DNA from: Escherichia phage RuthEpting_Bas85
Strand: one strand, 5' to 3'
Length of the DNA: 44,889 nucleotides
Sequence record: PQ850624.1
The notes beneath the pieces are model-generated. The model saw only the letters and a program-made list of their open reading frames with translations, had not been told where the DNA came from and searched no databases. Numbering within the stretch: the first letter of the stretch is position 1; every line of letters starts with the position of its first letter. The position numbers were made by a program, and so were the translations under genes. Positions 1,948 through 43,256 of this stretch are shown piece by piece.

Positions 1948-3468
1948 ATGACCGTTAACGTTGACAACCAGCACCCACTCTATGCGCGCATCGCGCAGGA
2001 GTGGAAAATGATCCGGGATTGTGTAGCAGGGGAGCGCGCCGTGAAGGCGTGCGGCCCTTTGTACCTCCCTCACCCCGCCAGCGGCGACAATACCGACCCG
2101 AAAGCACGGGCGCGATATAAGGCATATAAACAACGTGCTGTATTCCTGAACGCCACCGCGCGCACGCTTAACGCGCTGTTAGGCGTTGCCTTCGCTAAGC
2201 CGGTTAGCGTGGACCTTACCGGGGCGATGGCTGACCTGATTGATGACGTAGACGGCAGCGGGATGCCACTGGCGCAACTCCTGCGCGGTGCTATGTCTGA
2301 AGTGCTGCAATCGGGCCGCGCGGGCTTTATGGTGGACTACGACCGCCAGGCTAACTTTGATGAACTGGGTAACGTAGTGCCGCAGACCGCCGCCGAGATG
2401 GCGACGCATCGCCCGCTTATCCGCCTGTATACGGCAGAACAGATCATCAACTGGCGGCAGACCCACGGCGTTGATACGCTAATCGTGCTGAAGGAGACGG
2501 ACGAAATCAGCACTGAAGACCCGGACGACTTCGCAAACCACGAAGTAACGATCTGGACCGAGCTTCGCATGGTTGACGGCAAGGCGCACGCCCGCCGCTG
2601 GTTTTACAACGCGGACACGTCCGAGGTGCAAATGGACTTGCCGCGCGGATTCACCCGCACCGACCTTGTGCCGCTAGTGGATGCTGCCGGTCGTGCGCTT
2701 ACTCAACTGCCATTTTGCTGGTGCGGTGCGGTGGACAACAACGCCACGCCGGACGCCGCGCCGCTGGCGGATATTGCATCCATCAACATTAAGCACTACA
2801 ACGCTGAGGCGGACGTCGCCGAGATTGCGCACATCGTGGGCCAGCCTACCCTTGTTGCCACGGGACTGACGCAATCATGGGCGGACAAAAACCTGAAGGG
2901 CGGGATTGCTCTCGGCGCGACTAAGGGCGTTATCCTGGGCCAGAACATGGACGCTAAACTGATTCAGGCCGAGGAGCGCAACTTGTCTGTTGCACTTTGT
3001 GAGCGCCGCGAATTGCAAATGGCTAAACTGGGCGCGGCCCTGGTTGAGAAGGGGACCGCACCGAAGACGGCAACTGAAGCGGCCTACGATGCGCAGACTG
3101 ATAACAGTATCCTGTCACTTATTGCCGGTAACGTTGAGAAGGCTTTCAACCGTGCGCTGCAAATCGTCCAGCTATTCACGGGTGATACCGCGGACCAGCG
3201 CGTAACGTTGAACAAGTTCTACACCGAAATCACGGTTGATGCGCAGCTTATGACCGCAATGATGGCGGGTGTGCAGACCGGTACGGTCCGACTGGCTGAC
3301 TTTATCAAGTGGATGATGGCGCAGGGCGTTATCGACGACTCGCAAACCGTCGAGCAGGTGGAAGACGAATTGCGAAATCAGAATCCATTGCCTCAAATGT
3401 CCCCCGATGCGGTAGAATCTACCGAAGAAGACCCGGACAAGGTAACGGACAATGGCGAGAACAATTAA
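1948..3468 (+). CDS. portal protein
   Basis: 506 aa directly after TerL, RBS AAGGA; size, position and acidic C-terminus typical of portal proteins. Confidence 0.8.
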   Translation: MTVNVDNQHPLYARIAQEWKMIRDCVAGERAVKACGPLYLPHPASGDNTDPKARARYKAYKQRAVFLNATARTLNALLGVAFAKPVSVDLTGAMADLIDDVDGSGMPLAQLLRGAMSEVLQSGRAGFMVDYDRQANFDELGNVVPQTAAEMATHRPLIRLYTAEQIINWRQTHGVDTLIVLKETDEISTEDPDDFANHEVTIWTELRMVDGKAHARRWFYNADTSEVQMDLPRGFTRTDLVPLVDAAGRALTQLPFCWCGAVDNNATPDAAPLADIASINIKHYNAEADVAEIAHIVGQPTLVATGLTQSWADKNLKGGIALGATKGVILGQNMDAKLIQAEERNLSVALCERRELQMAKLGAALVEKGTAPKTATEAAYDAQTDNSILSLIAGNVEKAFNRALQIVQLFTGDTADQRVTLNKFYTEITVDAQLMTAMMAGVQTGTVRLADFIKWMMAQGVIDDSQTVEQVEDELRNQNPLPQMSPDAVESTEEDPDKVTDNGENN

Positions 3469-4555
3469 TCAACATATGGCGGATCGCATGATTCGCCGTC
3501 ACATCTTCACCCAGCGCCTGAGCAATGACCAGGCGCGGCGGGTGTTGGCTATGTGGGAGAAGTTCCGGCCCACGTTACTTGGTAAGCTGACCGAGTTACT
3601 TGATGGCAAAAAGTCCATGAATAACAAGGCACTGACCACTCTGTTAACGCAAATCGACAAGACCGTCAAAACGGAACTGCGCACCGAGTTTAAAGCGCTG
3701 GCTGAAAGCCTTCAGGAGTTCGCCGACACCGAGGCTGATTATCTTGCCGATACATTAACGGCAGCGATCCAGCCAGCGGTCGCCGTACCTGCGGTTGAGG
3801 TAGTTGGCGTTGTGACCGGCGCGCAGATCGCAGCGACGGCTATGAAAAACCCATTCCAGGGAAACACCATGATGCAATGGCCTGATTCACTTTCTGAGTG
3901 GACCAGGACGCAGATCGGTAATCAGGTGCGCGCTGGATTCATCCAGGGAAAGCCGACTATGGAAATTATCGCGGACGTAAGGCGCGCGCTCGGCGGTCGT
4001 AGTGCGCAGGCAATCTCAAGCGTTGTTAAGTCCGCAGTAAACCACTATGCGGCGACCGCCCGCGAATTAATGGTAAAAGCTAATGACGATATTCTCGAAG
4101 GTCGCCAATGGTTGGCTACATTGGATACACACACATCACCTATGTGCCAGCTACGCGATCGCCTGTTTTATCCAGTTGATGTTACTCCCGACACCAAAGG
4201 AAAGCGCGGCGGGAAAGTGGTGGCTGGGACACAATATGGCGCTGGTCCGGGCAAGCTGCATTATTGCTGCCGGTCTACGGAGACGTGGAAAGTCAAAGGC
4301 ATGGAAGATTGGCCCAGTGGTAAGCGTCCGGCACTGAAGGCTGACGCGGGTCGATTGCTGAGTGAGCAGGTCGACGCGCAGACTGATTTCTTCTCATGGG
4401 TACAGCGCCAGCCGCGCCATATTCTGGAGGAATTATATGGGGTGCAGCGCGCAGACCAGATTATGCGCGGCGTGAAAGTGCCGAAGATGTTCACCGATAC
4501 TGGCGAACTAATGACTATCGCACAGATTAAAAACCGGGGGTTATGGCGTGATTAA
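3452..4555 (+). CDS. head morphogenesis protein (Mu F / SPP1 gp7-like)
   Basis: 367 aa overlapping portal end; minor-head-protein-like motifs (WLATLDTHTSPMCQ, Cys-rich C-terminal half). Confidence 0.7.
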   Translation: MARTINQHMADRMIRRHIFTQRLSNDQARRVLAMWEKFRPTLLGKLTELLDGKKSMNNKALTTLLTQIDKTVKTELRTEFKALAESLQEFADTEADYLADTLTAAIQPAVAVPAVEVVGVVTGAQIAATAMKNPFQGNTMMQWPDSLSEWTRTQIGNQVRAGFIQGKPTMEIIADVRRALGGRSAQAISSVVKSAVNHYAATARELMVKANDDILEGRQWLATLDTHTSPMCQLRDRLFYPVDVTPDTKGKRGGKVVAGTQYGAGPGKLHYCCRSTETWKVKGMEDWPSGKRPALKADAGRLLSEQVDAQTDFFSWVQRQPRHILEELYGVQRADQIMRGVKVPKMFTDTGELMTIAQIKNRGLWRD

Positions 4556-4856
4556 ATATGCAGCGATTGGACTGGTTATCGGTCTGGCGGTTGGATTCTG
4601 GCAGGGTGATTCCTACCGCACTGGCGTTGTGGCGAAAGCGGCGCAAGAAGCGCAAGCCGAAGCCCAACGGCAGCAAACTAAGGTTGTAGAGGGGTCGGTG
4701 AAGGCTGAGCAAGCCCGCGACGTGGAATACCGGACTATCACGAAAGAGGTTGTAAAATATGTTACGCGTCCTAACCGTCCTGATTGTAGTTTTGATGCTG
4801 AGCGCGTGCGGATCAAGCAAAGCGCCATCGACGCCGCTAACCGAGTCGGTCTATAG
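4548..4856 (+). CDS. Rz-like inner-membrane spanin (putative)
   Basis: GTG start; N-terminal TM segment (IKYAAIGLVIGLAVGFW) followed by Ala/Gln/Glu-rich coiled-coil region; contains an embedded +1-frame lipoprotein ORF. Confidence 0.5.
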   Translation: MIKYAAIGLVIGLAVGFWQGDSYRTGVVAKAAQEAQAEAQRQQTKVVEGSVKAEQARDVEYRTITKEVVKYVTRPNRPDCSFDAERVRIKQSAIDAANRVGL

Positions 4857-4989
4857 ACCGCCTTGCACCTTTGAGAATGCCTCGGCAGATCCAGACGAGG
4901 ACTTGCTTGTTGATGTTAAAAATATGGAATGCGGGGCTAAGCTGAGGGCGCAAGTGCTGGAGTTGCAGAAAATAATTCGGGGGCCGTAA
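4759..4989 (+). CDS. Rz1-like outer-membrane lipoprotein spanin (putative)
   Basis: 76 aa, RBS AGAGG; signal peptide with lipobox LSAC; Pro-containing mature part; starts inside and extends past the preceding ORF (overlapped Rz/Rz1 architecture). Confidence 0.5.
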   Translation: MLRVLTVLIVVLMLSACGSSKAPSTPLTESVYRPPCTFENASADPDEDLLVDVKNMECGAKLRAQVLELQKIIRGP

Positions 4990-5002
4990 TGGCCCCCTTT
5001 TT
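4979..5002. terminator. bidirectional rho-independent terminator
   Basis: GGGGGCC-gtaat-GGCCCCC followed by TTTTT; sits between convergent genes (Rz1 stop 4989, minus gene stop 5004). Confidence 0.7.
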
Positions 5003-5003
5003 G

Positions 5004-5768
5004 TTAGCGCGGAATACCGCAAATCTCGTTTAACGTCTTCACGTCCAGCGCTACTGCCGTTGACTTCGGCTTGTCCGGGTATGGAATGAACTGTTCAACT
5101 TCAGGCCACGCCGCGATCAGCTTCTTGTCAGTATTGTGCATATCCAGCACGCCGGTAACAGTTAGTTTGAACGCGTCATACTTCGCACGCAATTCACGGC
5201 GGGCCTTGTCGTTGCGGTCCAGTCGCTTGCAGAAATCATGATCTGCCGGGTAGTCTGCGCGACCGCGCGGGAGATATATCGGCAGCGCTTTTCCATCTTC
5301 GTCCACTTCGCACACTGACGCGAGCATAATTTCCTCGTACCCCGGTACAATATCGCTGAGGTCCGGCGCGAGCTTATTCGTATATTTATCTTCCCAGTAT
5401 CCGCGATGAACGCGGTATTTACGACCGTCGCCGCTCAATGACAAGGTGCGAACGTTACCGCCTGCGTTGATTTCGAAAGTGGCGTCATAAACGCTGCCGA
5501 TACCTTTCGGGCGGTCGGTGTTATAGCTATATGTCGCCTTGTTGGTATATACGCTGACGCCGTACATCTGCGACTGGTCATCGCGGATTGATACAATATA
5601 TGCGCGTAGCTCGGCGAACGTGTGAATGCCTTTTGGCATACAGTGCAACGTGATGTCGTACGCCAGGTCGCGAGAGTCCATCATGATTTTTTTGGCTTCA
5701 GTCGCGATTTCGTGGTCGCGCAGGATGTTAGCCAGAATCTGGTTTTTAATGTCTTTTGTCAGTCTCAT
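5004..5768 (-). CDS. hypothetical protein (opposite-strand moron in head region)
   Basis: 254-aa ORF, ATG start with RBS GAGGA; no motif recognised; opposite orientation to the flanking structural genes. Confidence 0.5.
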   Translation of the reverse strand: MRLTKDIKNQILANILRDHEIATEAKKIMMDSRDLAYDITLHCMPKGIHTFAELRAYIVSIRDDQSQMYGVSVYTNKATYSYNTDRPKGIGSVYDATFEINAGGNVRTLSLSGDGRKYRVHRGYWEDKYTNKLAPDLSDIVPGYEEIMLASVCEVDEDGKALPIYLPRGRADYPADHDFCKRLDRNDKARRELRAKYDAFKLTVTGVLDMHNTDKKLIAAWPEVEQFIPYPDKPKSTAVALDVKTLNEICGIPR

Positions 5769-5807
5769 TTTTGTGTCCTCAAGGTTGGGGCTTCCGCCCC
5801 ATTTGGT

Positions 5808-6122
5808 TTAGTTAAACTTGATGTTTCCACCGGTGGAAGTTAAGCGAGCGCATACAGCTTCAACGGCATCGACGCACATGAAATCGTTAAAGGCTTCTAC
5901 CAGGGCGTTGATGAAAGATGCCGGAACCAGGCCACAAGCCGGATTTTCGAAGGTTGCGGAATTGATTGCAGCCTTTGCGGCTTCAGTAGCGTTCATGCTC
6001 TGGCACAGATTCAGCGCTTCCGCGTTACGCATTGCGTGAAAGGTAAAAGTATTGGCTACGGCAGCTTTATTGAAACGGGTCATTGCTGCGTCTACTGGAG
6101 TTGCTACGGTCATGTTATTCAT
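5808..6122 (-). CDS. hypothetical Ala-rich protein (moron)
   Basis: Start chosen at ATG 6122 (MNNMTV...) because of RBS AAGGA 8 nt upstream; ORF track extends to 6173 via TTG; no motif recognised. Confidence 0.4.
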   Translation of the reverse strand: MNNMTVATPVDAAMTRFNKAAVANTFTFHAMRNAEALNLCQSMNATEAAKAAINSATFENPACGLVPASFINALVEAFNDFMCVDAVEAVCARLTSTGGNIKFN

Positions 6123-6158
6123 TTTGTTTTCCTTCATATCTCTGTTGGTGTGCAACCA

Positions 6159-6187
6159 ATATAATGCAACCAATACCCGGATTGCAA
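6159..6187 (-). promoter_or_regulatory. sigma70-like promoter for minus-strand island, overlapped by two TGCAACCAAT motifs
   Basis: Minus-strand reading TTGCAA(6187-6182)-N17-TTATAT(6164-6159); plus strand carries TGCAACCAAT at 6151-6160 and 6165-6174 with a perfect TATAAT at 6160-6165. Confidence 0.4.
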
Positions 6188-6277
6188 GCGAATTTTGCGA
6201 TTATTTTTATCGCTGATAATATTAGAAGCGTGAAGTCGAGCGGGTGGCCCGCTCTGCCACAATCCCAGGGGGATAGC

Positions 6278-6982
6278 ATGAAACTTACTAAAGCAGAATA
6301 TGACGCGTTGCCGGAAAGCATGAAGGCGCTTTTTGTTGCCGACGGCGATGGGTATAAGTCAACATTTATGTCCGCTGACGAAGTACAGGCGGAAATCAAG
6401 GGTCTGAAAGACAACAACGCAAAGCTGGTGAGCGAGAAGAAAGCAGAAGCTGAACGCCGCGCCGAAGCCGAGCGCCTTGCGAAAGAGAAAGAGGACGCCG
6501 CCGCGCGCAAAAATGGCGACCTCGAAGCGATTGATAAGTCCTGGAAGGATAAGTTTGCAAAACACGAAGCAGACACATCGGGGAAAATCGAATCCTATCG
6601 CAAGCAGATCCACGACCTTACTATCGGCAGCGCTGCCAAAGACCTGGCCTCGAAGCTGTTCGGTAAGAATGCTGGCATCATGCAACGCCACGTAATGGAA
6701 CGCCTCGCGCTGGAAGACGGCGAAGACGGCAGCTTGAAAGTGCGCGTCTTGCAGGATGGCAAACCGTCCGCTCTGACTATGGACGAGCTTGAAAAAGAGT
6801 TCCGTAATAACGCCGATTTTGCATCCGTCCTAGCTGGCACGCCAGCCGGTGGCGCTCCGAGCAAACCGACACAGGTTATCGAAGATGCGAAGTCTAAAAT
6901 CACGATGGGCCATAGCTTCGGTATCACCGACCTGACGAAACAGGCAGGGGATATCATCGCTAAGATGGGCGACGACGAGTAA
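6278..6982 (+). CDS. head scaffolding protein (putative)
   Basis: Start at ATG 6278 (RBS AGGGGGA); 234 aa, charged, coiled-coil-like (AEAERRAEAERLAKEKEDAAARK); immediately upstream of major capsid gene. Confidence 0.6.
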   Translation: MKLTKAEYDALPESMKALFVADGDGYKSTFMSADEVQAEIKGLKDNNAKLVSEKKAEAERRAEAERLAKEKEDAAARKNGDLEAIDKSWKDKFAKHEADTSGKIESYRKQIHDLTIGSAAKDLASKLFGKNAGIMQRHVMERLALEDGEDGSLKVRVLQDGKPSALTMDELEKEFRNNADFASVLAGTPAGGAPSKPTQVIEDAKSKITMGHSFGITDLTKQAGDIIAKMGDDE

Positions 6983-7079
6983 GCAGATCGCCCGCGAAAG
7001 CGGGCGATTTTGCTAGCGCGTAAATCTAAGGTAACATTAACGTCACTGGGCGAATGCTCACAACTCAAAGGATTTCGAT

Positions 7080-8180
7080 ATGTCTTTAACAGTGTTCCAG
7101 CGTAAACTCGTTACCGCGGTTACGCAAATGATCCCCGACAACCTGAACGTGTTCAACGCTGCCGCTAATGGCGCTGTTGTTCTCGGTACAGGTGAAGTGC
7201 TGAAGGACGTTGTAGAAAAAATGTCCGTCGGCTTGATCGCCAACCTCGTTACTGACCGTAACGCATATGCGCCTGTAGGCACACCGGCAACCGCTAAAGT
7301 GCTGGCGCGTATGCTGACCAACTCGGTTAACCTCTCCGCGAAAGTGGGTCCGGTAGCAATCACTAAGGCTATGATGGCTAAGATCGAAACCAACGTTAAC
7401 AGCGTTGCGGCTGAGATTGCGGCACAGGCTACTCAAGCGATTATGCTGCATTACCTGAAGGCAGGTATTGGCGCAAGTAAAGCGGCGATCGAGAGCAACG
7501 CAGCGGCAGCATACACCCAACCGGCGCGCGTTGATGGCGTTGGCGGTCGTACCTTCCCTACCCTGGCAGACTTCCCGCTGGCGGCTTCTAAGTTCGGCGA
7601 TCAGGCGTCTTTGATTAAGTCCTGGTTTATGGACGGCGTTACCTGGGCTAACTTCATTGCGTACCAGGCGCTGCCTTCCGCTGAGCAGGTATTCGCGATC
7701 GGCGATCTGCAAGTAATGGGTGATGGCCTGGGCCGTCGTTTCATTATCTCCGATGCCGCTGCCGATGCTATGGGCGCGGGTAAGATGCTGGGTCTGGTCC
7801 CTGGCGCGGTTGCAGTTACCACTAACGGCCTCGATATGCTGGCGCAGGAAAAAGGCGGTAACGAGAACATCGAGCGCTGGTGGCAGGGTGAGTTCGACTT
7901 CAACGTGGCTGTTAAAGGCTACCGTCTGAAGGCGTCCGCTCGTACTCCGATCGAAGGCGTCCGCTCTTTTGCCCTGGGTGATATCACCACTAAGGACAAC
8001 TGGGAACTGGATCAGGGCCAAGTAGACAACGCTCCGGCAACCGTTCAGGATGTTGGCGCGGTGGGTGATGGCGATACTAAAGGCCGTCGCAAGACCCAAG
8101 CAGCACAGGCCGTGCCGACCCGTAACATCAAGGAAACGGCTGGCGTACTGGTTACGCTGACTGCTACCAGCGCGTCTTAA
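7080..8180 (+). CDS. major capsid protein
   Basis: 366 aa, RBS AAGGA, followed by strong terminator; position after scaffold; composition typical of capsid proteins. Antisense ORF 7086-8189 judged spurious. Confidence 0.8.
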   Translation: MSLTVFQRKLVTAVTQMIPDNLNVFNAAANGAVVLGTGEVLKDVVEKMSVGLIANLVTDRNAYAPVGTPATAKVLARMLTNSVNLSAKVGPVAITKAMMAKIETNVNSVAAEIAAQATQAIMLHYLKAGIGASKAAIESNAAAAYTQPARVDGVGGRTFPTLADFPLAASKFGDQASLIKSWFMDGVTWANFIAYQALPSAEQVFAIGDLQVMGDGLGRRFIISDAAADAMGAGKMLGLVPGAVAVTTNGLDMLAQEKGGNENIERWWQGEFDFNVAVKGYRLKASARTPIEGVRSFALGDITTKDNWELDQGQVDNAPATVQDVGAVGDGDTKGRRKTQAAQAVPTRNIKETAGVLVTLTATSAS

Positions 8181-11748: not shown

Positions 11749-12018
11749 GCGGGACGGATCGGGACGTCCCGCTTTGTCCCGTTTTGTCCCGCCACCTGCA
11801 AAACTGCATACCTACTCACTTTCATTGCATAAACTAAAAGCGGGACGAGCGGGACGTCCCGATCCGTCCCGCCCCCTAAATGTGCATACCTATTCAGATT
11901 TCGTGCATAAAATAAGCGGGACAGAAAGCGGGACAAACATGGGGCGGGACAAAGCGGGACAGCACCCCGTCCCCGTCAGTGCTGCCGCGGGTTTTAGCCG
12001 ATCGGGACAAGCGGGACA
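11749..12018. repeat. iteron array A (GCGGGACA / TGTCCCGC, both orientations)
   Basis: At least 5 exact GCGGGACA copies (11916, 11928, 11944, 11954, 12011) plus GGGAC-core variants; two identical 12-bp palindromes CGGGACGTCCCG (11760-11771, 11850-11861); two tandem ~80-bp units carrying TGCATA...GCATAAA. Confidence 0.8.
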
Positions 12019-12023
12019 AACCC

Positions 12024-12072
12024 CAGTCTTTCAGACTAGACGGGGGTCAATGGCCCCCCTCGTCTGAGACTG
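12024..12072 (+). other. long imperfect hairpin A (conserved copy at 39750-39799)
   Basis: CAGTCTTTCAGACTAGACGGGGG-tcaatg-GCCCCCCTCGTCTGAGACTG; arms identical in the second copy, loop differs. Confidence 0.6.
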
Positions 12073-12140
12073 AATAAGGTTTGTTTGAAATTCGCTGATA
12101 CAATGTCAATCGGCAACTGCATAAAAAAGGGGACTGCATA

Positions 12141-21008: not shown

Positions 21009-21030
21009 GGGGCCATCTGGCCCCTTTTTT
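21009..21030. terminator. bidirectional rho-independent terminator
   Basis: GGGGCC-atct-GGCCCC followed by TTTTTT; between convergent J-like gene and minus-strand gene. Confidence 0.75.
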
Positions 21031-21994
21031 AATAGATGTTAGGGATGACTAATAGCGGGGTGGGTACGGCAATATTTTTGCCCGGCATTTGGAATTGCTG
21101 CCGTGAGTAGTTGCCAATAACGCGGTTTTTAGCGATGCGCACATTATTACCCGCCATTCGTATCCCGTTCATGCGCACATGGTTATAGCCTCCGTTGTTC
21201 TCAATGAGCGCACCGGTATATGAAAGCTGGATCAGACTATTACCGATGTGCTGGTCGCCGCCACCGATATTAATCGTTCGGTCGTAGACAAACGGCTTGT
21301 TTACCGTCGAGAACGTGACCTGCCCCTGGTTGTTAGTCATGGTGATACCGGTCCCCGGTGAGGGCGGCGTATTGTTGAATATGACCAGGTCCATATCAAC
21401 GGCAGCGCCTACGTCGTCAATCCCGCCATAGGACGCATTACGGACAATGATACTTCCGCCATCGAAGCCAACCGATACGTTGCCGTCGTCCCAGCGCGCG
21501 AACGGGACACCGCCGACTGGTAGCGGCATACTTCCGTTTACATGCACGCGCTGCGCATATCGGCACGTCATTAGCCGTGATACGTTGGATATGGCGGTGA
21601 AGTCCGTTGAGTTAGCCACCAGTAAGCCCGCATTGCGTGACCCCACCGGCAGCACTTCCATAATCACCCCGCCCCATGTTGGAAGCCCGCTGTATGCGTT
21701 ATAGGCGTCCTCACCGCGCAAGGTGATTCCGCCATCCCCGTTACGTTGTATCGACGTCACATAAAACGGGTCTGGCAAGACCAGGGTCTGGTCGAATACC
21801 TCAATCACTTCAACCGGATTAGTTAGGGCAACGACCAGTTCGGACCCTGGTGTCAGCGGTGTGTTAATGGACAGCGTCTTGTCAGACTGACAGCGCTGAT
21901 TAAAGGTAGTGCAAAACGACGGAGCGCGAAGGCCCGCGGTTATCTCCATGACAGGTCTACCGTCGTTGTAGTCGATTAATATTCCGGCACCCAT
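21029..21994 (-). CDS. receptor-binding / tail tip protein (putative)
   Basis: ATG at 21994 with RBS GGGAG (ORF track extends to GTG 22003); ~321 aa, Gly/Asn/Val/Ile-rich beta-type composition, no signal peptide; co-oriented with the lipoprotein gene upstream. Function by context only. Confidence 0.4.
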   Translation of the reverse strand: MGAGILIDYNDGRPVMEITAGLRAPSFCTTFNQRCQSDKTLSINTPLTPGSELVVALTNPVEVIEVFDQTLVLPDPFYVTSIQRNGDGGITLRGEDAYNAYSGLPTWGGVIMEVLPVGSRNAGLLVANSTDFTAISNVSRLMTCRYAQRVHVNGSMPLPVGGVPFARWDDGNVSVGFDGGSIIVRNASYGGIDDVGAAVDMDLVIFNNTPPSPGTGITMTNNQGQVTFSTVNKPFVYDRTINIGGGDQHIGNSLIQLSYTGALIENNGGYNHVRMNGIRMAGNNVRIAKNRVIGNYSRQQFQMPGKNIAVPTPLLVIPNIY

Positions 21995-21996
21995 TA

Positions 21997-22218
21997 TTAC
22001 CACTCCCGTGATTTAACTGATACAGTACCGGAAAAATTGCCGTCGCTATCGGCAGACAGGCCAGTGAAGCGCATGTCAACATCTCCGGCAGGGACTTTTT
22101 GCCCGTCAACGTAACGCAACATGCAGCTTCCGTAAGCCACCGTAATGCAATCACCGTTGTTGCGTTCTACAGCACAACCGGACAAAAGGACCGCACAAAT
22201 CATAATTAAAGTTTTCAT
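21997..22218 (-). CDS. Cor/Llp-like superinfection-exclusion lipoprotein (putative)
   Basis: Start at ATG 22218 (RBS GGAGA); 73 aa; signal peptide MKTLIMICAVLLSGC with lipobox LSGC; small Cys-containing mature part; adjacent to tail fibre genes. Confidence 0.55.
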   Translation of the reverse strand: MKTLIMICAVLLSGCAVERNNGDCITVAYGSCMLRYVDGQKVPAGDVDMRFTGLSADSDGNFSGTVSVKSREW

Positions 22219-22235
22219 GTTATCATCTCCTATAT

Positions 22236-22269: not shown

Positions 22270-22298
22270 GAATGCAACCAATTTATGAGGATTCAGCT

Positions 22299-25240: not shown

Positions 25241-25292
25241 GATGTTTTCCTTTTTAGTGGGGGCCGGATTGCCCCCGACGAGATAACTATAG

Positions 25293-25314
25293 TGCAACCA
25301 ACCTATTGGTTGCA
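25293..25314. promoter_or_regulatory. palindromic TGCAACCAA-N4-TTGGTTGCA site
   Basis: Perfect 9-bp inverted arms; overlaps the stop of the HAD gene and precedes the 24719-25240 gene. Confidence 0.45.
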
Positions 25315-25773
25315 AGTAAATTTTGCTACGTTTATAGAATAAATTTTAGGGACCAGATCGCTGCACGCCCGACGGATGGCGTCAATATTCTTAGCGCAGT
25401 CTTCAATGATGACCAGTTCGGACACGTTCGCATAGCATACAAGGTTGAATACGGCGCTCGCCTTAAACACCGGCGGCGGGGTGTCGTCCAACATTTCGCG
25501 CAAGAACAGCCGACCAGACGGGAATATTTTCAACTGTTCGGCGGTAGTCTCCCAGCACGCATAATGCCGGTTAGACAGATACGCGATCTCGAAGCCTTGC
25601 TCTTTGTACATGCGCAGCAACGGCAGCATGTCCATGTTAAGGTCTTCGCGTACGTGTGCTTTGTGCCACTTCGCCCAAAAGGTTGATTTGGTTTTTATGC
25701 CAGGCACCAGGTCAGCACGCGCATCACTTGAACCATTAATAACGCCATCCAGATCACAAATCAGTAGTTTCAT
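25303..25773 (-). CDS. HAD-family phosphatase-like protein
   Basis: N-terminal DLDGV (DxDx[TV]) motif, later LSNR and IIED motifs consistent with HAD hydrolase motifs I-IV. Confidence 0.55.
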   Translation of the reverse strand: MKLLICDLDGVINGSSDARADLVPGIKTKSTFWAKWHKAHVREDLNMDMLPLLRMYKEQGFEIAYLSNRHYACWETTAEQLKIFPSGRLFLREMLDDTPPPVFKASAVFNLVCYANVSELVIIEDCAKNIDAIRRACSDLVPKIYSINVAKFTCNQ

Positions 25774-25994: not shown

Positions 25995-26460
25995 GGAGTT
26001 CTCCTTCGCTCATTATTTCAATTTGTGCGCTGCCGATGGGTGGCGCTTCGTCAAATATTATCAATTGCTGGCACTTGTTATTGCTCGGCCCAACTTCGCC
26101 GGTCACAGCATGGATGAATCGCACACGCCAGTCCAGAAGAATTATCATGTTGGCAGTCTTCCGGGCCAGCCTCGCCCACTTCGTCGACGTGTCCTGATTC
26201 AGTAGCATGACCGTATGGCGACCGTGCGCAGCGCACTCGACCCACGGCAGCGGATCGGAATACGGCGGATTGCACCACTTCCACCCTTTCAACTCTGACC
26301 AGTCCGCCTCAAGCGCGCTATGCTCTGCCGTGAAGTAGCGCGGTAACAGGTGATTGGTGTCGCTTGCCGCCATATCGTAACGAAATCGGTACTTACGGCG
26401 CAGCGGTTTAAATAATGCTGGCGGCGTGCGCCAGCTATCCTTTTGCTCACTCTTCTGCAT
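25975..26460 (-). CDS. DNA N6-adenine methyltransferase (phage Dam-like)
   Basis: 161 aa with catalytic NPPY motif (WCNPPYSD) and a phage Dam-like N-terminus (SWRTPP). Confidence 0.8.
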   Translation of the reverse strand: MQKSEQKDSWRTPPALFKPLRRKYRFRYDMAASDTNHLLPRYFTAEHSALEADWSELKGWKWCNPPYSDPLPWVECAAHGRHTVMLLNQDTSTKWARLARKTANMIILLDWRVRFIHAVTGEVGPSNNKCQQLIIFDEAPPIGSAQIEIMSEGELLEYLNR

Positions 26461-26911
26461 GGTCGGTGTCTATCGCGTAAAGGGCAATCTTGTCCCCTTT
26501 CTTTAGGATTCGCTGCAATCGCTGCGTCTCCGACACCCCCAAAGGGCGCGCGTCCGGGTAGAAGTTGCCGTTTGTTGGGTGTCTCCACGCGACCAGCACC
26601 AGGTCTTTACGGGCGACCGCAGACTGGCGGCCCTTCGGACGCACGTACGCCTCGGCACGTTTGCAATGCTCACGCAGACCTTCAGCCGTCATGCGATTAA
26701 GCACCGCGGTGGTTTTGTATCCGGTGCGCTGCATAATCCCCATCAGTTCGAACAGCAGTTCGAAGCGCTCCTCTAACTCCTTGCGCACCTTCTCCTCACC
26801 TTCATAGCTCGCAAGGTAGGTGTCTGCCAGCGCGTTCGCGCGTTCGGCCTGTTCGCGGGCTTCGAGGCACTGCGCGGCCCAGTAATTTTTCTCTTCTTGT
26901 AAAATTTTCAT
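26447..26911 (-). CDS. hypothetical protein
   Basis: 154 aa; coiled-coil-like N-terminus; no motif recognised. Confidence 0.45.
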   Translation of the reverse strand: MKILQEEKNYWAAQCLEAREQAERANALADTYLASYEGEEKVRKELEERFELLFELMGIMQRTGYKTTAVLNRMTAEGLREHCKRAEAYVRPKGRQSAVARKDLVLVAWRHPTNGNFYPDARPLGVSETQRLQRILKKGDKIALYAIDTDHAEE

Positions 26912-27154: not shown

Positions 27155-27234
27155 CGTAATGTCTCCAGGTATTAAAAAGGGCGTCCAACCGGACACCCTT
27201 AAGATAATGCAACCAATCTAATTACGCAACCAAT

Positions 27235-30150: not shown

Positions 30151-30429
30151 CTACGCGACCAATTCAGCAACCAATAAATCGCAGTCGGCTATGTTGTCAA
30201 TAACGCGAACGTCAGCACCGCGGCGGGCCATTCGCTCATGTTCTCGCACCTGGTGCGGCTTCGGTTTTCCTCCGGGGCGCTTCACTTCGACGAATACTAT
30301 GATGCCGTTGATGATAATAATCAGGTCGGGCGCACCTGCGCGCCCCTCCCATGCCAGCTTGCGGCAGAATCCGCCAACCTCTTTCACCCGTCGCATCAGG
30401 TGACTTTGAATCTTGCCTTCTGGTGTCAT
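30151..30429 (-). CDS. VRR-NUC domain nuclease
   Basis: 92 aa; PD-(D/E)xK signature GAPDLIII...VFVEVKRPGGKP...Q typical of VRR-NUC domains. Confidence 0.8.
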   Translation of the reverse strand: MTPEGKIQSHLMRRVKEVGGFCRKLAWEGRAGAPDLIIIINGIIVFVEVKRPGGKPKPHQVREHERMARRGADVRVIDNIADCDLLVAELVA

Positions 30430-36721: not shown

Positions 36722-36751
36722 ATAATAGATTGGTTGCAGGCGGGGTGTCAA
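36722..36751 (-). promoter_or_regulatory. leftward early promoter (sigma70-like) with embedded ATTGGTTGCA motif
   Basis: Minus-strand reading TTGACA(36751-36746)-N18-TATTAT(36727-36722); motif at 36729-36738 lies in the spacer; -35 is part of a 13-bp inverted repeat shared with the rightward promoter. Confidence 0.5.
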
Positions 36752-39535: not shown

Positions 39536-39626
39536 ATTTTGCGCGCATTGGTTGCCAAATTGAGTGTTTTTAGCTGGTCGCATTGGTTGCCGTGTAGTGT
39601 AAATATAGTGAATAGTTATGCAGTTT

Positions 39627-39745
39627 TATTGCATAAAATAAGCGGGACAAAAAGCGGGACAGACAGGGGGCGGGACAAAGCGGGACAGCACCCCTTGTCC
39701 CGCCCGGATGGCGCGGCTTTCAGAGGAGCGGGACAGGCGGGACAA
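39627..39745. repeat. iteron array B (second copy)
   Basis: TTGCATAAAAT followed by six exact GCGGGACA copies (39642, 39654, 39670, 39680, 39728, 39737) and one inverted TGTCCCGC; ~85% identical to 11895-12018. Confidence 0.8.
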
Positions 39746-39749
39746 ACCC

Positions 39750-39799
39750 CAGTCTTTCAGACTAGACGGGGGTCAGTCGGCCCCCCTCGTCTGAGACTG
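39750..39799 (+). other. long imperfect hairpin B
   Basis: CAGTCTTTCAGACTAGACGGGGG-tcagtcg-GCCCCCCTCGTCTGAGACTG; arms identical to hairpin A, loop one nt longer. Confidence 0.6.
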
Positions 39800-40017
39800 C
39801 ATAAAATCCGGGATTGCATAATGTACGGCAGCATGACGTGAATTGCGGTCGTCGACGAACTAGGCAACCAATGCGAGTTGTATTATGGGTGGTGAAAAAT
39901 GCAGTTTGCAGTTACAGCAGATAGCGATCAACTTTTTCATACGCATGATTAATATTGGTTGCATTCAGCCTGGCACCCTGCTAGATTGGTTGCACCCCAA
40001 CGAGAGGACCAAACAAA

Positions 40018-40506: not shown

Positions 40507-40776
40507 ATGGGCCGTAGCCGAGCTAAACAGCTTTCTTGGCATATTCCCCTGCATTGCATACGAATATGGGCTAAGAACGCGATTGAGGGCGATTACGTGT
40601 ACTGGTGCTATCGCGATGACGTGAAGCCACTTACGCAGACCCGCTACTTGCACCAGTTCGCAGCACAACACGATTTCAGGGTGCGGACTTCCTTGCAACC
40701 AATGGGGATACGTATTACATTACGCCGGAAGCCCGCCGTTGAGCGGGTAGGCAAACACTGGAGACTGAGCAAATGA
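40507..40776 (+). CDS. hypothetical protein
   Basis: 89-aa ORF; contains one in-coding TGCAACCAAT copy (40694-40703). Confidence 0.4.
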   Translation: MGRSRAKQLSWHIPLHCIRIWAKNAIEGDYVYWCYRDDVKPLTQTRYLHQFAAQHDFRVRTSLQPMGIRITLRRKPAVERVGKHWRLSK

Positions 40777-41955: not shown

Positions 41956-41990
41956 AGTCCCAGTGAGCTAAAACTTACTGGGACTTTTTT
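41956..41990 (+). terminator. rho-independent terminator
   Basis: AGTCCCAGT-gagctaaaactt-ACTGGGACT (perfect 9-bp stem) followed by TTTTTT; ends 1 nt before ATG 41991. Confidence 0.7.
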
Positions 41991-42281
41991 ATGGATAAGC
42001 TAAACGAGTGGTTATTCGCCCTCGCGTGTCTTGCAGGTGGCTTCGTTGGCGCTCGCATTCACGGTGAGGCAACGAAAGGGCCGCTAAATTTTGTATTGTT
42101 TATCGTGGTCGGCTTCTTGTGCGCCGTGTTTGGGGCACCAGCTATTGCCGAGTGGTTTAATCTAACCGGACCGAGAACTGTCGCCGGTCTTGGCTTCGTA
42201 ACGGCAATCTTCTGGATGCCGGTCGCCGCCAGAATCCGTGAAGCAATCTCCTCGTTCCGTCTGCCGGGGAATGCAAAATGA
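41991..42281 (+). CDS. holin (putative, three hydrophobic segments)
   Basis: 96 aa; hydrophobic stretches (WLFALACLAGGFVGA, NFVLFIVVGFLCAVFGAPAI, VAGLGFVTAIFWMPVAA), charged C-terminus; upstream of endolysin. Confidence 0.55.
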   Translation: MDKLNEWLFALACLAGGFVGARIHGEATKGPLNFVLFIVVGFLCAVFGAPAIAEWFNLTGPRTVAGLGFVTAIFWMPVAARIREAISSFRLPGNAK

Positions 42282-42517
42282 TTATCGCCATCCTGTTATT
42301 AGTGATCGGGGCTTCGTCGCTGTATAACGTATACGCGCCATCCGTCCAGGATGGCATTTGCGGACGGGTGCTCTACCTGCTTACAGCAATGACCTGTATT
42401 ATTGGCCTGATGCAAACGGGGAACGTATCGAATACAGTCTGGTCCGTGCTAATCTGGCTATTCGCATTACGCACACTGCGTAATGCTGTTTTAAATGGGG
42501 TAAAACATGCGATTTAG
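42278..42517 (+). CDS. second holin-like membrane protein
   Basis: 79 aa, two or three hydrophobic segments; overlaps holin stop and endolysin start. Confidence 0.45.
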   Translation: MIIAILLLVIGASSLYNVYAPSVQDGICGRVLYLLTAMTCIIGLMQTGNVSNTVWSVLIWLFALRTLRNAVLNGVKHAI

Positions 42518-42998
42518 TGACAACGGTCTAAGATTTACGGCAGCGTGGGAGTCGTTCAGCCCAGTGCCGTATTTCGCGACTAAGAAGGAGCAGGCCCGCG
42601 GCTTGTACACCTGGGGCTACGGTCATACTGGCACTAATCCGCCACAGAGCATTACCCGCGCGGAAGCGCTGGAGCTACTCAAGCGTGATGTGGCGTATGC
42701 CGAGAACTGGGTGAACAAGTACGCACACCCGAGCATCAATCAGGCGCAATTCGACGCGCTGGTGGATCTGGTAATCAATGCCGGTCAAGGTCCGATCGTA
42801 CCGGATAACATTGCCAATGACTTCGATGACGCGGTGCGCCTGGGTGATTGGGCCAAAGTCCGTGCTACGCTGCCGCAGTTCCGCAAGCAAGGCGGTGAAG
42901 TGCTCAAGGGCCTGGTACGTCGTGCAATCGGCAGACAGGCGCTATTCGATGGTAAGCAGTGGGACGTTGCCGAGAAAATCGGTCGTAACGCGGCATAA
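42507..42998 (+). CDS. endolysin (lysozyme-type, putative)
   Basis: 163 aa; N-terminal GLRFTAAWESFSPVPY...GLYTWGYGHTG resembles catalytic Glu-containing region of phage lysozymes; downstream of holins. Confidence 0.8.
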   Translation: MRFSDNGLRFTAAWESFSPVPYFATKKEQARGLYTWGYGHTGTNPPQSITRAEALELLKRDVAYAENWVNKYAHPSINQAQFDALVDLVINAGQGPIVPDNIANDFDDAVRLGDWAKVRATLPQFRKQGGEVLKGLVRRAIGRQALFDGKQWDVAEKIGRNAA

Positions 42999-43014
42999 TA
43001 AGAGGAAACACAGT

Positions 43015-43182
43015 ATGTTAAAAAGTATTCTTGATCATAACGCGGACGCGCTTGCCGCACTGGCTAAAACGGAAGACCCAGGCGCGCGCGCCATTATCGC
43101 GGACACTATCAGTCATGCGGGTGTCTTTGACGCGAAGCTGCCAAGCCCGCCACCGCCGGAAGAACCAGGCCCAGCGGCATAA
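43015..43182 (+). CDS. small hypothetical protein (55 aa)
   Basis: RBS AAGAGGA; Pro-rich C-terminus (PSPPPPEEPGPAA); followed by terminator. Confidence 0.35.
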   Translation: MLKSILDHNADALAALAKTEDPGARAIIADTISHAGVFDAKLPSPPPPEEPGPAA

Positions 43183-43187
43183 ACACG

Positions 43188-43212
43188 AAGCCCGGTTAAT
43201 TCCGGGCTTTTT
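43188..43212 (+). terminator. rho-independent terminator
   Basis: GCCCGG-ttaatt-CCGGGC followed by TTTTT. Confidence 0.7.
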
Positions 43213-43217
43213 ATTGC

Positions 43218-43256
43218 TTGACTTGCAACCAACATAGGGGCCATACTGCAACCAAT
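43218..43256 (+). promoter_or_regulatory. sigma70-like promoter overlapped by two TGCAACCAA(C/T) motifs
   Basis: TTGACT(43218-43223)-N18-CATACT(43242-43247); motifs at 43224-43233 and 43247-43256. Confidence 0.45.

Follow-up and report, generated by a model that had tools for sequence, protein, structure and literature searches.

Introduction

Why does a phage keep, in the midst of its head genes, two genes that are read in the opposite direction? The question is raised by Escherichia phage RuthEpting_Bas85 (sequence record PQ850624.1). In its DNA of 44,889 nucleotides (nt), the whole stretch analysed here and called the window, the interval 5004-6187 carries two open reading frames (ORFs) on the minus strand, nmad5 and a smaller one which we call ORF104. 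A preliminary description of the sequence had seen here an inserted island with its own promoter and terminator, coding for two proteins of unknown function, and had suggested host interaction, superinfection exclusion or anti-defence as its purpose. In this work we have analysed the locus computationally. Every element of that description was found at the coordinates given, and our verdict is that it is an accessory, host-interaction locus and not a structural one. More specifically, we hold it to be rather probable that the interval is a leftward accessory operon of the genus Dhillonvirus, with predicted transcription of its own, a cargo slot, and nmad5 as the gene of a protein-binding effector in which the substitution K216E is a gain-of-function or dominant-negative change. 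The locus itself has already been described: nmad5 is a known, dispensable and host-toxic Dhillonvirus gene, and our results leave the basic classification as a real accessory locus unchanged. The polymorphism of the cargo slot, the promoter motif family and the argument which sets Nmad5 apart from DNA hypermodification appear to be new, and they are modest additions.

Judged by its sequence, the window is a Dhillonvirus. It aligns end to end with the record of Escherichia phage Haito_Bas83 (PQ850604.1) at 98.5% identity and is therefore essentially a whole genome. The stretch 4500-6500 is 99.8% identical to Bas83, and about 150 further Dhillonvirus genomes share 84-98% identity with the same 2 kb. 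The genes follow each other in the order terminase small and large subunits, portal, head morphogenesis, an embedded pair of i-spanin and o-spanin, the two minus-strand ORFs, scaffold, major capsid and tail genes. The placement of the pair between the spanin and scaffold genes, as first described, is borne out by PHROG matches on both sides, to Rz-like spanins at 4548-4856 and 4759-4989 and to the head scaffolding protein at 6278-6982.

A predicted leftward transcription unit in the head module

Are the two frames genes, and what would transcribe them? The gene nmad5 (5004-5768, minus strand) codes for 254 amino acids (aa). ORF104 codes for 104 aa at 5808-6122 on the same strand; its best start is the ATG at 6122, with AAGGAA 7 nt upstream, in a full frame of 5808-6173, and the Bas83 record begins it at an alternative start, 6137. 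Among Dhillonvirus orthologs the median pairwise ratio of non-synonymous to synonymous substitution rates (dN/dS) comes to 0.13 in nmad5 and to 0.08 in ORF104; purifying selection thus acts on both of them in the minus-strand frame.

Between the nmad5 operon and the scaffold-capsid operon lies a divergent control region of 135 base pairs (bp; 6143-6277) which is 90-99% identical in 18 Dhillonvirus loci and, in all six loci with measured flanks, more conserved than the coding sequences of nmad5 and of the scaffold gene at its two ends. It contains a predicted sigma-70-like promoter, TTGCAA-18-TATATT, at 6187..6158 on the minus strand, the sole match in 4400-7200. Its -35 and -10 hexamers are kept in every Dhillonvirus compared, and the spacer is 17 nt long in phages whose cargo slot, described below, is empty. 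The two TGCAACCAAT motifs of the preliminary description lie exactly at 6151-6160 and 6165-6174 in their plus-strand form. Read on the minus strand, ATTGGTTGCA stands twice in direct orientation within 6151-6174, first in the promoter spacer and again over the -10 hexamer and start-site region.

At the other end, the bidirectional intrinsic terminator at 4979-5002, which would serve the spanin operon on the plus strand and the nmad5 operon on the minus strand, was called on both strands. Its stem (4979-4997) has 7-8 GC-rich base pairs and is followed on the plus strand by five T residues (4998-5002), while the minus-strand tail, GAAUUAUUUU (also given as GAATTATTTT), is weaker. The fold has an energy of -17.1 kcal/mol on either strand (z about -3.3), none of 200 shuffled sequences was as stable, and the o-spanin stop codon falls within its loop. 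With a conserved predicted promoter and a shared terminator, the locus may well be a leftward transcription unit of its own, as had been suggested. Host RNA polymerase would start from 6187..6158, transcribe in the direction opposite to the head genes and terminate at the hairpin which the spanin operon also uses.

The terminator at 4979-5002 and the antisense operon also appear to divide the structural genes into two transcription units, and a rightward promoter for the scaffold and capsid genes is therefore implied inside 6143-6277. An inverted repeat upstream of the scaffold gene (6247-6263) was considered as a stable RNA structure and was not supported (z +0.8). No known RNA family was found in 4800-6400; the best match had an E-value of 0.47, far under the gathering score.

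The cargo slot and ORF104

Is the whole pair an insert? We aligned the sequence from the scaffold ATG to the nmad5 ATG in seven phages and surveyed the same place in 18 loci. ORF104 turned out to be a precise indel which consists of a leader with a ribosome-binding site (GAGATATGAAGGAAAACAAA), the ORF itself and a hairpin with a GNRA tetraloop. The junction runs from ...CACCAACA, the end of the control region, to GAGGA, the ribosome-binding site of nmad5. The leader (6123-6142, minus strand) forms the 5' boundary of the cassette and is missing in phages with an empty slot. The 3' boundary is the GGAA-tetraloop hairpin already noticed between the two ORFs, which we place at 5786-5801 on the minus strand, between the ORF104 stop codon and the ribosome-binding site of nmad5; its sense strand reads GGGGC-GGAA-GCCCC (-12.9 kcal/mol, z -2.0). 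Because no U-tract follows it on the sense strand, this hairpin is not a classical terminator of the operon. ORF104 has no promoter of its own and is served by the conserved nmad5 promoter.

The slot was empty in 8 of the 18 loci and held ORF104 in six. In two others it was occupied by an unrelated ORF of 135 aa (ORF135) with the same leader and the same hairpin, in one by an ORF of 172 aa (ORF172) which retains the last ~25 nt of ORF104 together with the hairpin, and in one by an ORF of 53 aa (ORF53). The hairpin is thus kept, with a GGAA or a GAAA loop, behind three different cargo genes. These sequence comparisons show the first position after the promoter to be a cargo slot for interchangeable accessory genes, and the leader and hairpin common to ORF104 and ORF135 point to a swapping of cassettes by recombination; we infer that the repeated promoter motif is where the recombination takes place. 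The idea of an insert therefore holds for one gene of the two: by sequence, ORF104 behaves as inserted cargo, while nmad5 is a conserved gene at the level of the genus. The slot appears to be a natural insertion site that tolerates varied genes and, together with the shared promoter motif, it could be useful in phage engineering; the survey also yields four uncharacterised candidate host-interaction genes.

One of these, ORF172 (171-172 aa), matches phrog_3007; it also resembles, weakly and below threshold, the central domain of the DNA polymerase III beta clamp. It is found up- or downstream of nmad5 depending on the Dhillonvirus, for example at 3323-3838 in CHD5UKE2 and at 3401-3916 in another genome of our set (L015). 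In CHD5UKE2 it lies downstream, between duplicated terminator hairpins.

What could ORF104 do? The protein is acidic (isoelectric point 5.1) and its structure model is confident and helical with a terminal beta-hairpin, but has no fold neighbours, and searches of Pfam, PHROGs, NCBIfam, PADLOC and PDB sequences gave no characterised family. The motif conserved best is FDNPACGLVPxxF. A Cys/His metal site with four ligands was considered and dropped, since C83 is replaced by valine in the homologs of phages AAM37 and ZQ1; only H29, C63 and C91 are invariant. ORF104 occurs in 71 phage records, about 60 of them Dhillonviruses (of about 150, that is ~40% of the genus). Outside the genus it is found in Pantoea phage AAM37 (Dibbivirus) and in large phages such as Ackermannviridae phage ZQ1. 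In these two sampled loci nmad5 is not nearby, and a GC-rich tetraloop hairpin of another sequence lies within ~10 nt of the stop codon of the ORF104 homolog; ORF104 and a hairpin therefore appear to travel together. A small, acidic and mobile protein under purifying selection would fit a host-interaction or anti-defence gene.

A recurrent promoter motif

The promoter motif is not confined to the nmad5 operon. With at most one mismatch, ATTGGTTGCA occurs at 18 sites in the window against 3.5 expected, a number reached by none of 100 shuffled sequences, and eight of these sites fall within the 4.4% of the genome that is non-coding. Nine sites lie no more than 75 nt upstream of a gene on the same strand, the genes behind them being ORF104/nmad5, Bas83 0029-0028, 0032, 0037, the Lar-like 0042 (56 nt downstream of its site) and 0058. 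Gene 0037 is followed by 0036 and a methyltransferase gene. Besides the pair in the nmad5 promoter, copies were found at 22273-22282, 25293-25314, 27208-27234, 30166-30175, 36729-36738, 39547-39591, 39863-39872, 39954-39994, 40694-40703 and 43224-43256. Three sites (the nmad5 promoter, 25315..25286 and about 27234..27195) have a common layout of TTGC(A/G)N, 6-7 nt, (A/G)TTGGTTGCA, 1 nt and TAT(A/C)(T/G)T, and a fourth, at 39985, has ~35 nt of promoter and leader in common with the empty-slot nmad5 promoter. Since ATTGGTTGCA recurs at several promoter-like sites, it suggests a phage-wide promoter family or a shared operator for a candidate DNA-binding factor, and the element within the nmad5 promoter would belong to the one or answer to the other. 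A sigma-54 reading of the TTGCA motif was rejected on inspection because the spacing from GG to GC is 4 or 18 and not 12.

The additional copies are often paired, 14-35 bp apart, and mostly stand just 5' of genes; at 25293-25314 two of them form an inverted repeat. At 43180-43256 on the minus strand, a GC hairpin whose tail is rich in T (aaaaagcccggaattaaccgggcttcgtgttt) comes ~20 nt after two copies. The minus strand has no gene nearby, and a short unit for an antisense transcript or a small RNA could lie here, opposite Bas83 gene 0069. A further copy lies 55 nt upstream of Bas83_0029, which together with 0028 (annotated as 'membrane protein') forms a second antisense gene pair at about 21030-22220 on the minus strand. 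This pair is placed just 3' of the large tail protein gene (0027), between it and the tail fibre gene, a position which matches the receptor-binding-protein locus of these phages as given in the BASEL paper.

nmad5, its family and its predicted structure

The larger protein, first described as one of unknown function, has a single domain and belongs to a well-populated family. It matches Pfam Nmad5 (PF18757, Nucleotide modification associated domain 5) with 190 bits against a cut-off of 27, residues 1-253 covering profile positions 1-206 of 206, and it also matches phrog_1965 (E 6e-60). The Nmad domains were reportedly defined by Iyer et al. in 2013. Full-length orthologs, 85-92% identical, are present in about 147 phage records; by sequence, nmad5 with its promoter is near-universal in Dhillonvirus and the locus is not specific to this phage. 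In phage Teewinot the gene is almost wholly deleted, a natural loss-of-function variant, and metagenomic variants include C-terminal truncations and one in-frame deletion fusion of ORF104 to nmad5.

The family as a whole comprises 2,973 clusters at 50% identity, and its 150 best matches are all 92-253 aa long. We measured conservation in two diverse sets of members, of 34 and of 85. Among the 85, only P222, L246 and N247 are invariant, and R2, G104, G113, T213, L217, W221, P229 and P253 are conserved in at least 90%. The protein of the window carries all family-conserved positions (R2, G104, G113, T213-x3-L217-x3-W221-P222, P229, L246-N247 and P253). These residues are mostly Gly, Pro, Leu and Trp, and no catalytic constellation is obvious from the sequences. 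The best-conserved motif is T213-x-x-K216-L217-x-x-x-W221-P222, so that K216 lies within TxxKLxxxWP.

The AlphaFold2 model (mean predicted local distance difference test score 81.6, predicted template modelling score 0.77) has a helical bundle at its N-terminus, then a small beta-sheet and a long helix, and the conserved motifs lie in its C-terminal segment; an additional segment of ~30 aa in the Dhillonvirus proteins (residues 115-145) was modelled with low confidence. In the secondary-structure assignment, both residue 213 and residue 2 appear as an isolated bridge or strand position, a hint that in the model the TxxKLxxxWP motif may touch the conserved N-terminus.

Comparison of the Nmad5 model with solved structures gave no significant neighbour, a profile search of PDB sequences gave nothing better than E >= 1, and Foldseek against BFVD returned other Nmad5 proteins only. 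NCBIfam had nothing for either ORF (a weak sigma-factor match, E 0.12, was disregarded), and neither Nmad5 nor ORF104 matched the defence profiles of PADLOC. Profile searches and structure prediction, the check that had been proposed, have thus placed the 254-aa protein but have yielded neither a family for ORF104 nor a fold match for either. They have also shown neither protein to be an ordinary structural one, the case that would have spoken against an accessory locus: Pfam, PHROGs, PDB and BFVD gave no match to a structural family or fold.

nmad5 and escape from the Tmn defence

The gene has been studied in the Dhillonvirus phages SM_A8 and SM_S22 (Yamashita et al. 2025, Commun Biol 8:290; PMC11846954). 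Both phages escape the Tmn defence through one shared nmad5 substitution, K216E in SM_A8, which corresponds to K296E in SM_S22. When the substitution was undone sensitivity to Tmn came back, and when it was engineered in the phage became resistant. A deletion mutant of nmad5 was viable, yet still sensitive to Tmn, and the gene could not be cloned, apparently owing to toxicity; its product was read as a DNA modification enzyme (PMC11846954). So far nmad5 is the only phage gene genetically tied to Tmn escape in small therapy coliphages.

By synteny, and by full-length alignment to coding sequence (CDS) 7 of SM_A8, the nmad5 of the window is the ortholog of SM_A8 CDS7, which is placed two genes ahead of the scaffold gene, and of SM_S22 CDS6. 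The nucleotide identity to SM_S22, SM_A8 and KarlBarth is 84-88% (84-85% to SM_A8 and SM_S22). The genes of SM_A8 and SM_S22 have the same place and orientation, between the o-spanin and scaffold genes, and share the length of 254 aa and K216 with that of the window, which is thus the wild-type allele; SM_A8 carries ORF104 too. The promoter, the motif family, the cargo slot and ORF104 are not described in PMC11846954, where the Nmad5 of SM_S22 is treated as 80 aa longer than 254 aa. The annotated SM_S22 ORF (5005-6009) crosses the promoter region, which is conserved, and reaches the scaffold gene, with which it overlaps in antisense orientation, and the start MRLT, at the position of M1 in the protein of the window, is nearly invariant across the family; to judge from these sequences, the extension is therefore most likely an annotation artefact. 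As for the suggested role in host interaction, exclusion or anti-defence, the published K216E escape links the locus to a host defence; for wild-type nmad5 itself, whose deletion neither kills the phage nor relieves Tmn, anti-defence or exclusion is conjectural.

How Tmn is triggered has been reported for phage T2, where it is activated through direct recognition of the phage protein RIIB (bioRxiv 2026 preprint, PMC13001434). RIIB-D219S binds Tmn yet does not activate it, so that binding is separable from activation, and the T2 escapers include rIIB nonsense mutations (PMC13001434), which means that loss of RIIB gives escape. A homology of Nmad5 with RIIB was considered and rejected (hhalign of the Nmad5 profile against T4 RIIB, probability 0.5%).

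The window also contains a homolog of an anti-Tmn protein, at 26450-26911 on the minus strand (154 aa), which is 79% identical to SM_S22 CDS0035. We equated CDS0035 with the published anti-Tmn 'ORF35' by its distribution: it is not in SM_A8, it is in SM_A2 and SM_W22, and it is almost confined to Dhillonvirus-like genomes. The Bas83 record calls the gene 'DNA ligase', which looks like a misannotation. It follows gene 0037, in the operon downstream of the motif site at about 27234-27195. ORF104 is unrelated to this protein.

Does Nmad5 modify DNA?

Could the enzymatic reading of the family name apply to this phage? In M6-like phages (LKO4, MW2 and the genomes L033 and L040 of our set) Nmad5 is encoded between a 5-hydroxymethyldeoxyuridine (5-hmdU) DNA kinase and a thymidylate-synthase-like gene, and in the hypermodification cluster of SN1 aGPT-Pplase, radical S-adenosylmethionine and pyridoxal phosphate enzymes are listed beside it. 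The proteins of the Yuavirus phages LKO4 and SN1 and of the Vojvodinavirus MW2 belong to PF18757 like that of the window (LKO4 gp18 scores 116 bits), and the C-terminal TxxKLxxxWP...LNxxxGLP motifs are common to both; unlike them, the copy in the window sits in the head module, on the opposite strand. We searched the window by tblastn for the 5-hmdU DNA kinase with two queries (Pfam HMUDK_hel, from L033 and L040) and the best E-value was 0.83; the near-identical Bas83 record has no such kinase annotated. A search for the thymidylate-synthase-like pyrimidine hydroxymethylase and for LKO4 gp12, gp13, gp15 and gp17, with LKO4 and L040 queries, gave a best E-value of 0.2. Dhillonviruses are also comparatively sensitive to restriction systems (PMC8594841). 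No pathway partner being detectable and the genus being comparatively sensitive to restriction, Nmad5 is most likely not a base-modifying enzyme in this genome.

In other phages the neighbours of Nmad5 are helicases, recombination genes (PD-(D/E)XK, RecT, YqaJ), an Enc34-type single-stranded-DNA-binding protein, family A DNA polymerase, primase and replication protein O; elsewhere the gene is found in the lambdoid pL operon just 3' of gene N, or in runs of small early genes. A universal gene partner was looked for and the idea was dropped, as the clustering of neighbours over 23 loci gave lineage-specific ones only. In phage mEp235 a homolog of 207 aa (4695-5318; 243 bits) is encoded in the pL operon, two genes past N and upstream of kil, erf, ssb and exo, and 59 records of Shiga toxin (Stx)-converting phages (Stx1a, Stx2a) have C-terminal Nmad5 matches by tblastn. 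We know of no hypermodified DNA in mEp235 or the Stx-converting temperate coliphages. Taken together, this context and the negative searches make it more likely that Nmad5 works at the protein level, in connection with replication, recombination or host takeover. With partner genes lacking and the family set among replication and recombination genes, the published label of 'DNA modification enzyme' shifts towards a testable hypothesis of protein interaction.

Favoured explanation and its rivals

How would such a protein come to decide the outcome with Tmn? In the explanation we favour, Nmad5 would be a protein-binding effector, probably made early, with ties to host physiology and to the replication or recombination of DNA, and the contents of the slot ahead of it would be exchanged by recombination of cassettes. 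K216E would alter the outcome with Tmn, a membrane nucleoside triphosphatase (NTPase), via the TxxKLxxxWP motif. Because escape comes from missense changes only and not from deletion of nmad5, the substitution would be a gain-of-function or dominant-negative one and not the loss of a trigger; the altered protein might, for example, engage Tmn or its real trigger without productive effect. Several points weigh against this explanation. The absence of pathway genes was established by tblastn with few queries and by the annotation of a record; the protein-binding role is argued from negatives, no enzyme fold and no partners, and a new enzyme fold is possible. The contact between the K216 motif and the N-terminus was read from the secondary-structure string of the model, and that K216E is dominant-negative is our inference. 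ATTGGTTGCA could be duplicated promoter sequence with no dedicated binding factor. Lastly, a Dhillonvirus transcriptome was not found in the literature searched, and the early timing and the start site are predictions.

If instead Nmad5 were a DNA-modifying enzyme or an essential cofactor of one, Tmn would sense the modification and K216E would change it. The family name, the place in the thymidine-hypermodification clusters of M6-like phages and the position of the escape mutation within the family's most conserved motif speak for this, but the partners of the pathway have no detectable homolog in the window, and most Nmad5 genes of other phages stand in replication, recombination or early regions that lack them. 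The structure matches no known enzyme fold, the genus is relatively sensitive to restriction, and a phage deleted for nmad5 is still sensitive to Tmn, so that we think this unlikely. Another rival holds that wild-type Nmad5 itself triggers Tmn directly, in the manner of RIIB in T2, and that K216E abolishes recognition. The same residue was selected independently in two phages, reversion restores sensitivity, Nmad5 is tied to replication modules, and in T2 the activator is an early, replication-associated protein in which a single residue is decisive. Since the mutant without the gene stays sensitive, however, Nmad5 is not the sole trigger; the escapers recovered were all missense although the gene is dispensable, and no homology to RIIB was found. 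We regard this explanation, too, as improbable.

A different emphasis would make ORF104 and the other cargo the anti-defence or host-takeover genes and the slot a dedicated hot spot of counter-defence. At least four alternative genes come and go at one exact junction, ORF104 is small, acidic and under purifying selection and has moved horizontally into the unrelated AAM37 and ZQ1, a similar promoter precedes the operon of the anti-Tmn homolog, and another motif site precedes the Lar-like gene. On the other hand, the cargo has no homology or fold match to characterised proteins, and ORF172 looks like a protein of DNA metabolism; we keep this candidate role as a tentative but serious possibility. 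Wider, and to our mind doubtful, is the thought that the Nmad5 proteins (~3,000 clusters) are general effectors which engage the KAP/YobI-type membrane NTPase defences, such as Tmn, via TxxKLxxxWP and can be turned into an inhibitor by one substitution, with the locus being a counter-defence island co-regulated with the anti-Tmn operon by a ATTGGTTGCA-binding factor. If true, such an island would consist of a promoter with an operator-like motif, a swappable cargo slot and nmad5. Finally, as the two genes stand after that for head morphogenesis and before those for scaffold and capsid, their products might be taken for parts of the virion or of its assembly machinery, a decoration protein or a chaperone for instance, encoded on the other strand. 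This is already contradicted by the results and is very improbable: neither protein matches a structural family, Teewinot has lost most of nmad5, the metagenomic variants have it truncated or fused, the phage from which it was deleted in the published work is viable, about 60% of the genus lacks ORF104, and Nmad5 homologs elsewhere belong to early or replication regions.

Other features of the genome

Two observations concern other parts of the window. The spanin pair in the head module (4548-4989) is ~37 kb away from the holin and endolysin genes (about 41990-43000). A direct repeat of ~200 bp (11882-12077 and 39608-39804, ~85-86% identity) joins a small ORF of the tail module, Bas83_0021, with an ORF of the early region, Bas83_0056, and is a duplication of a small gene within the genome.

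Comparison with known systems

Nmad5 invites comparison with RIIB of T2. Both are non-structural phage proteins where mutations that escape Tmn map, and in both a single residue decides the outcome, D219 in RIIB and K216 in Nmad5. They differ in that loss of RIIB gives escape whereas deletion of nmad5 does not, and in that RIIB is not toxic alone whereas nmad5 could not be cloned.

The cargo slot, for its part, resembles two kinds of accessory cassette, the morons of lambdoid phages, said to go back to Juhala et al. in 2000, and the promoter-early stem-loop (PeSL) cassettes of T4-type phages, reportedly described by Arbiol et al. in 2010. As in these, an accessory ORF is present or absent in close relatives, flanked by a repeated promoter or leader and, at its other end, by a stem-loop, and different ORFs are exchanged within the same boundaries. 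Unlike these, ORF104 is inserted between an existing promoter and nmad5, and its hairpin is one without a U-tract.

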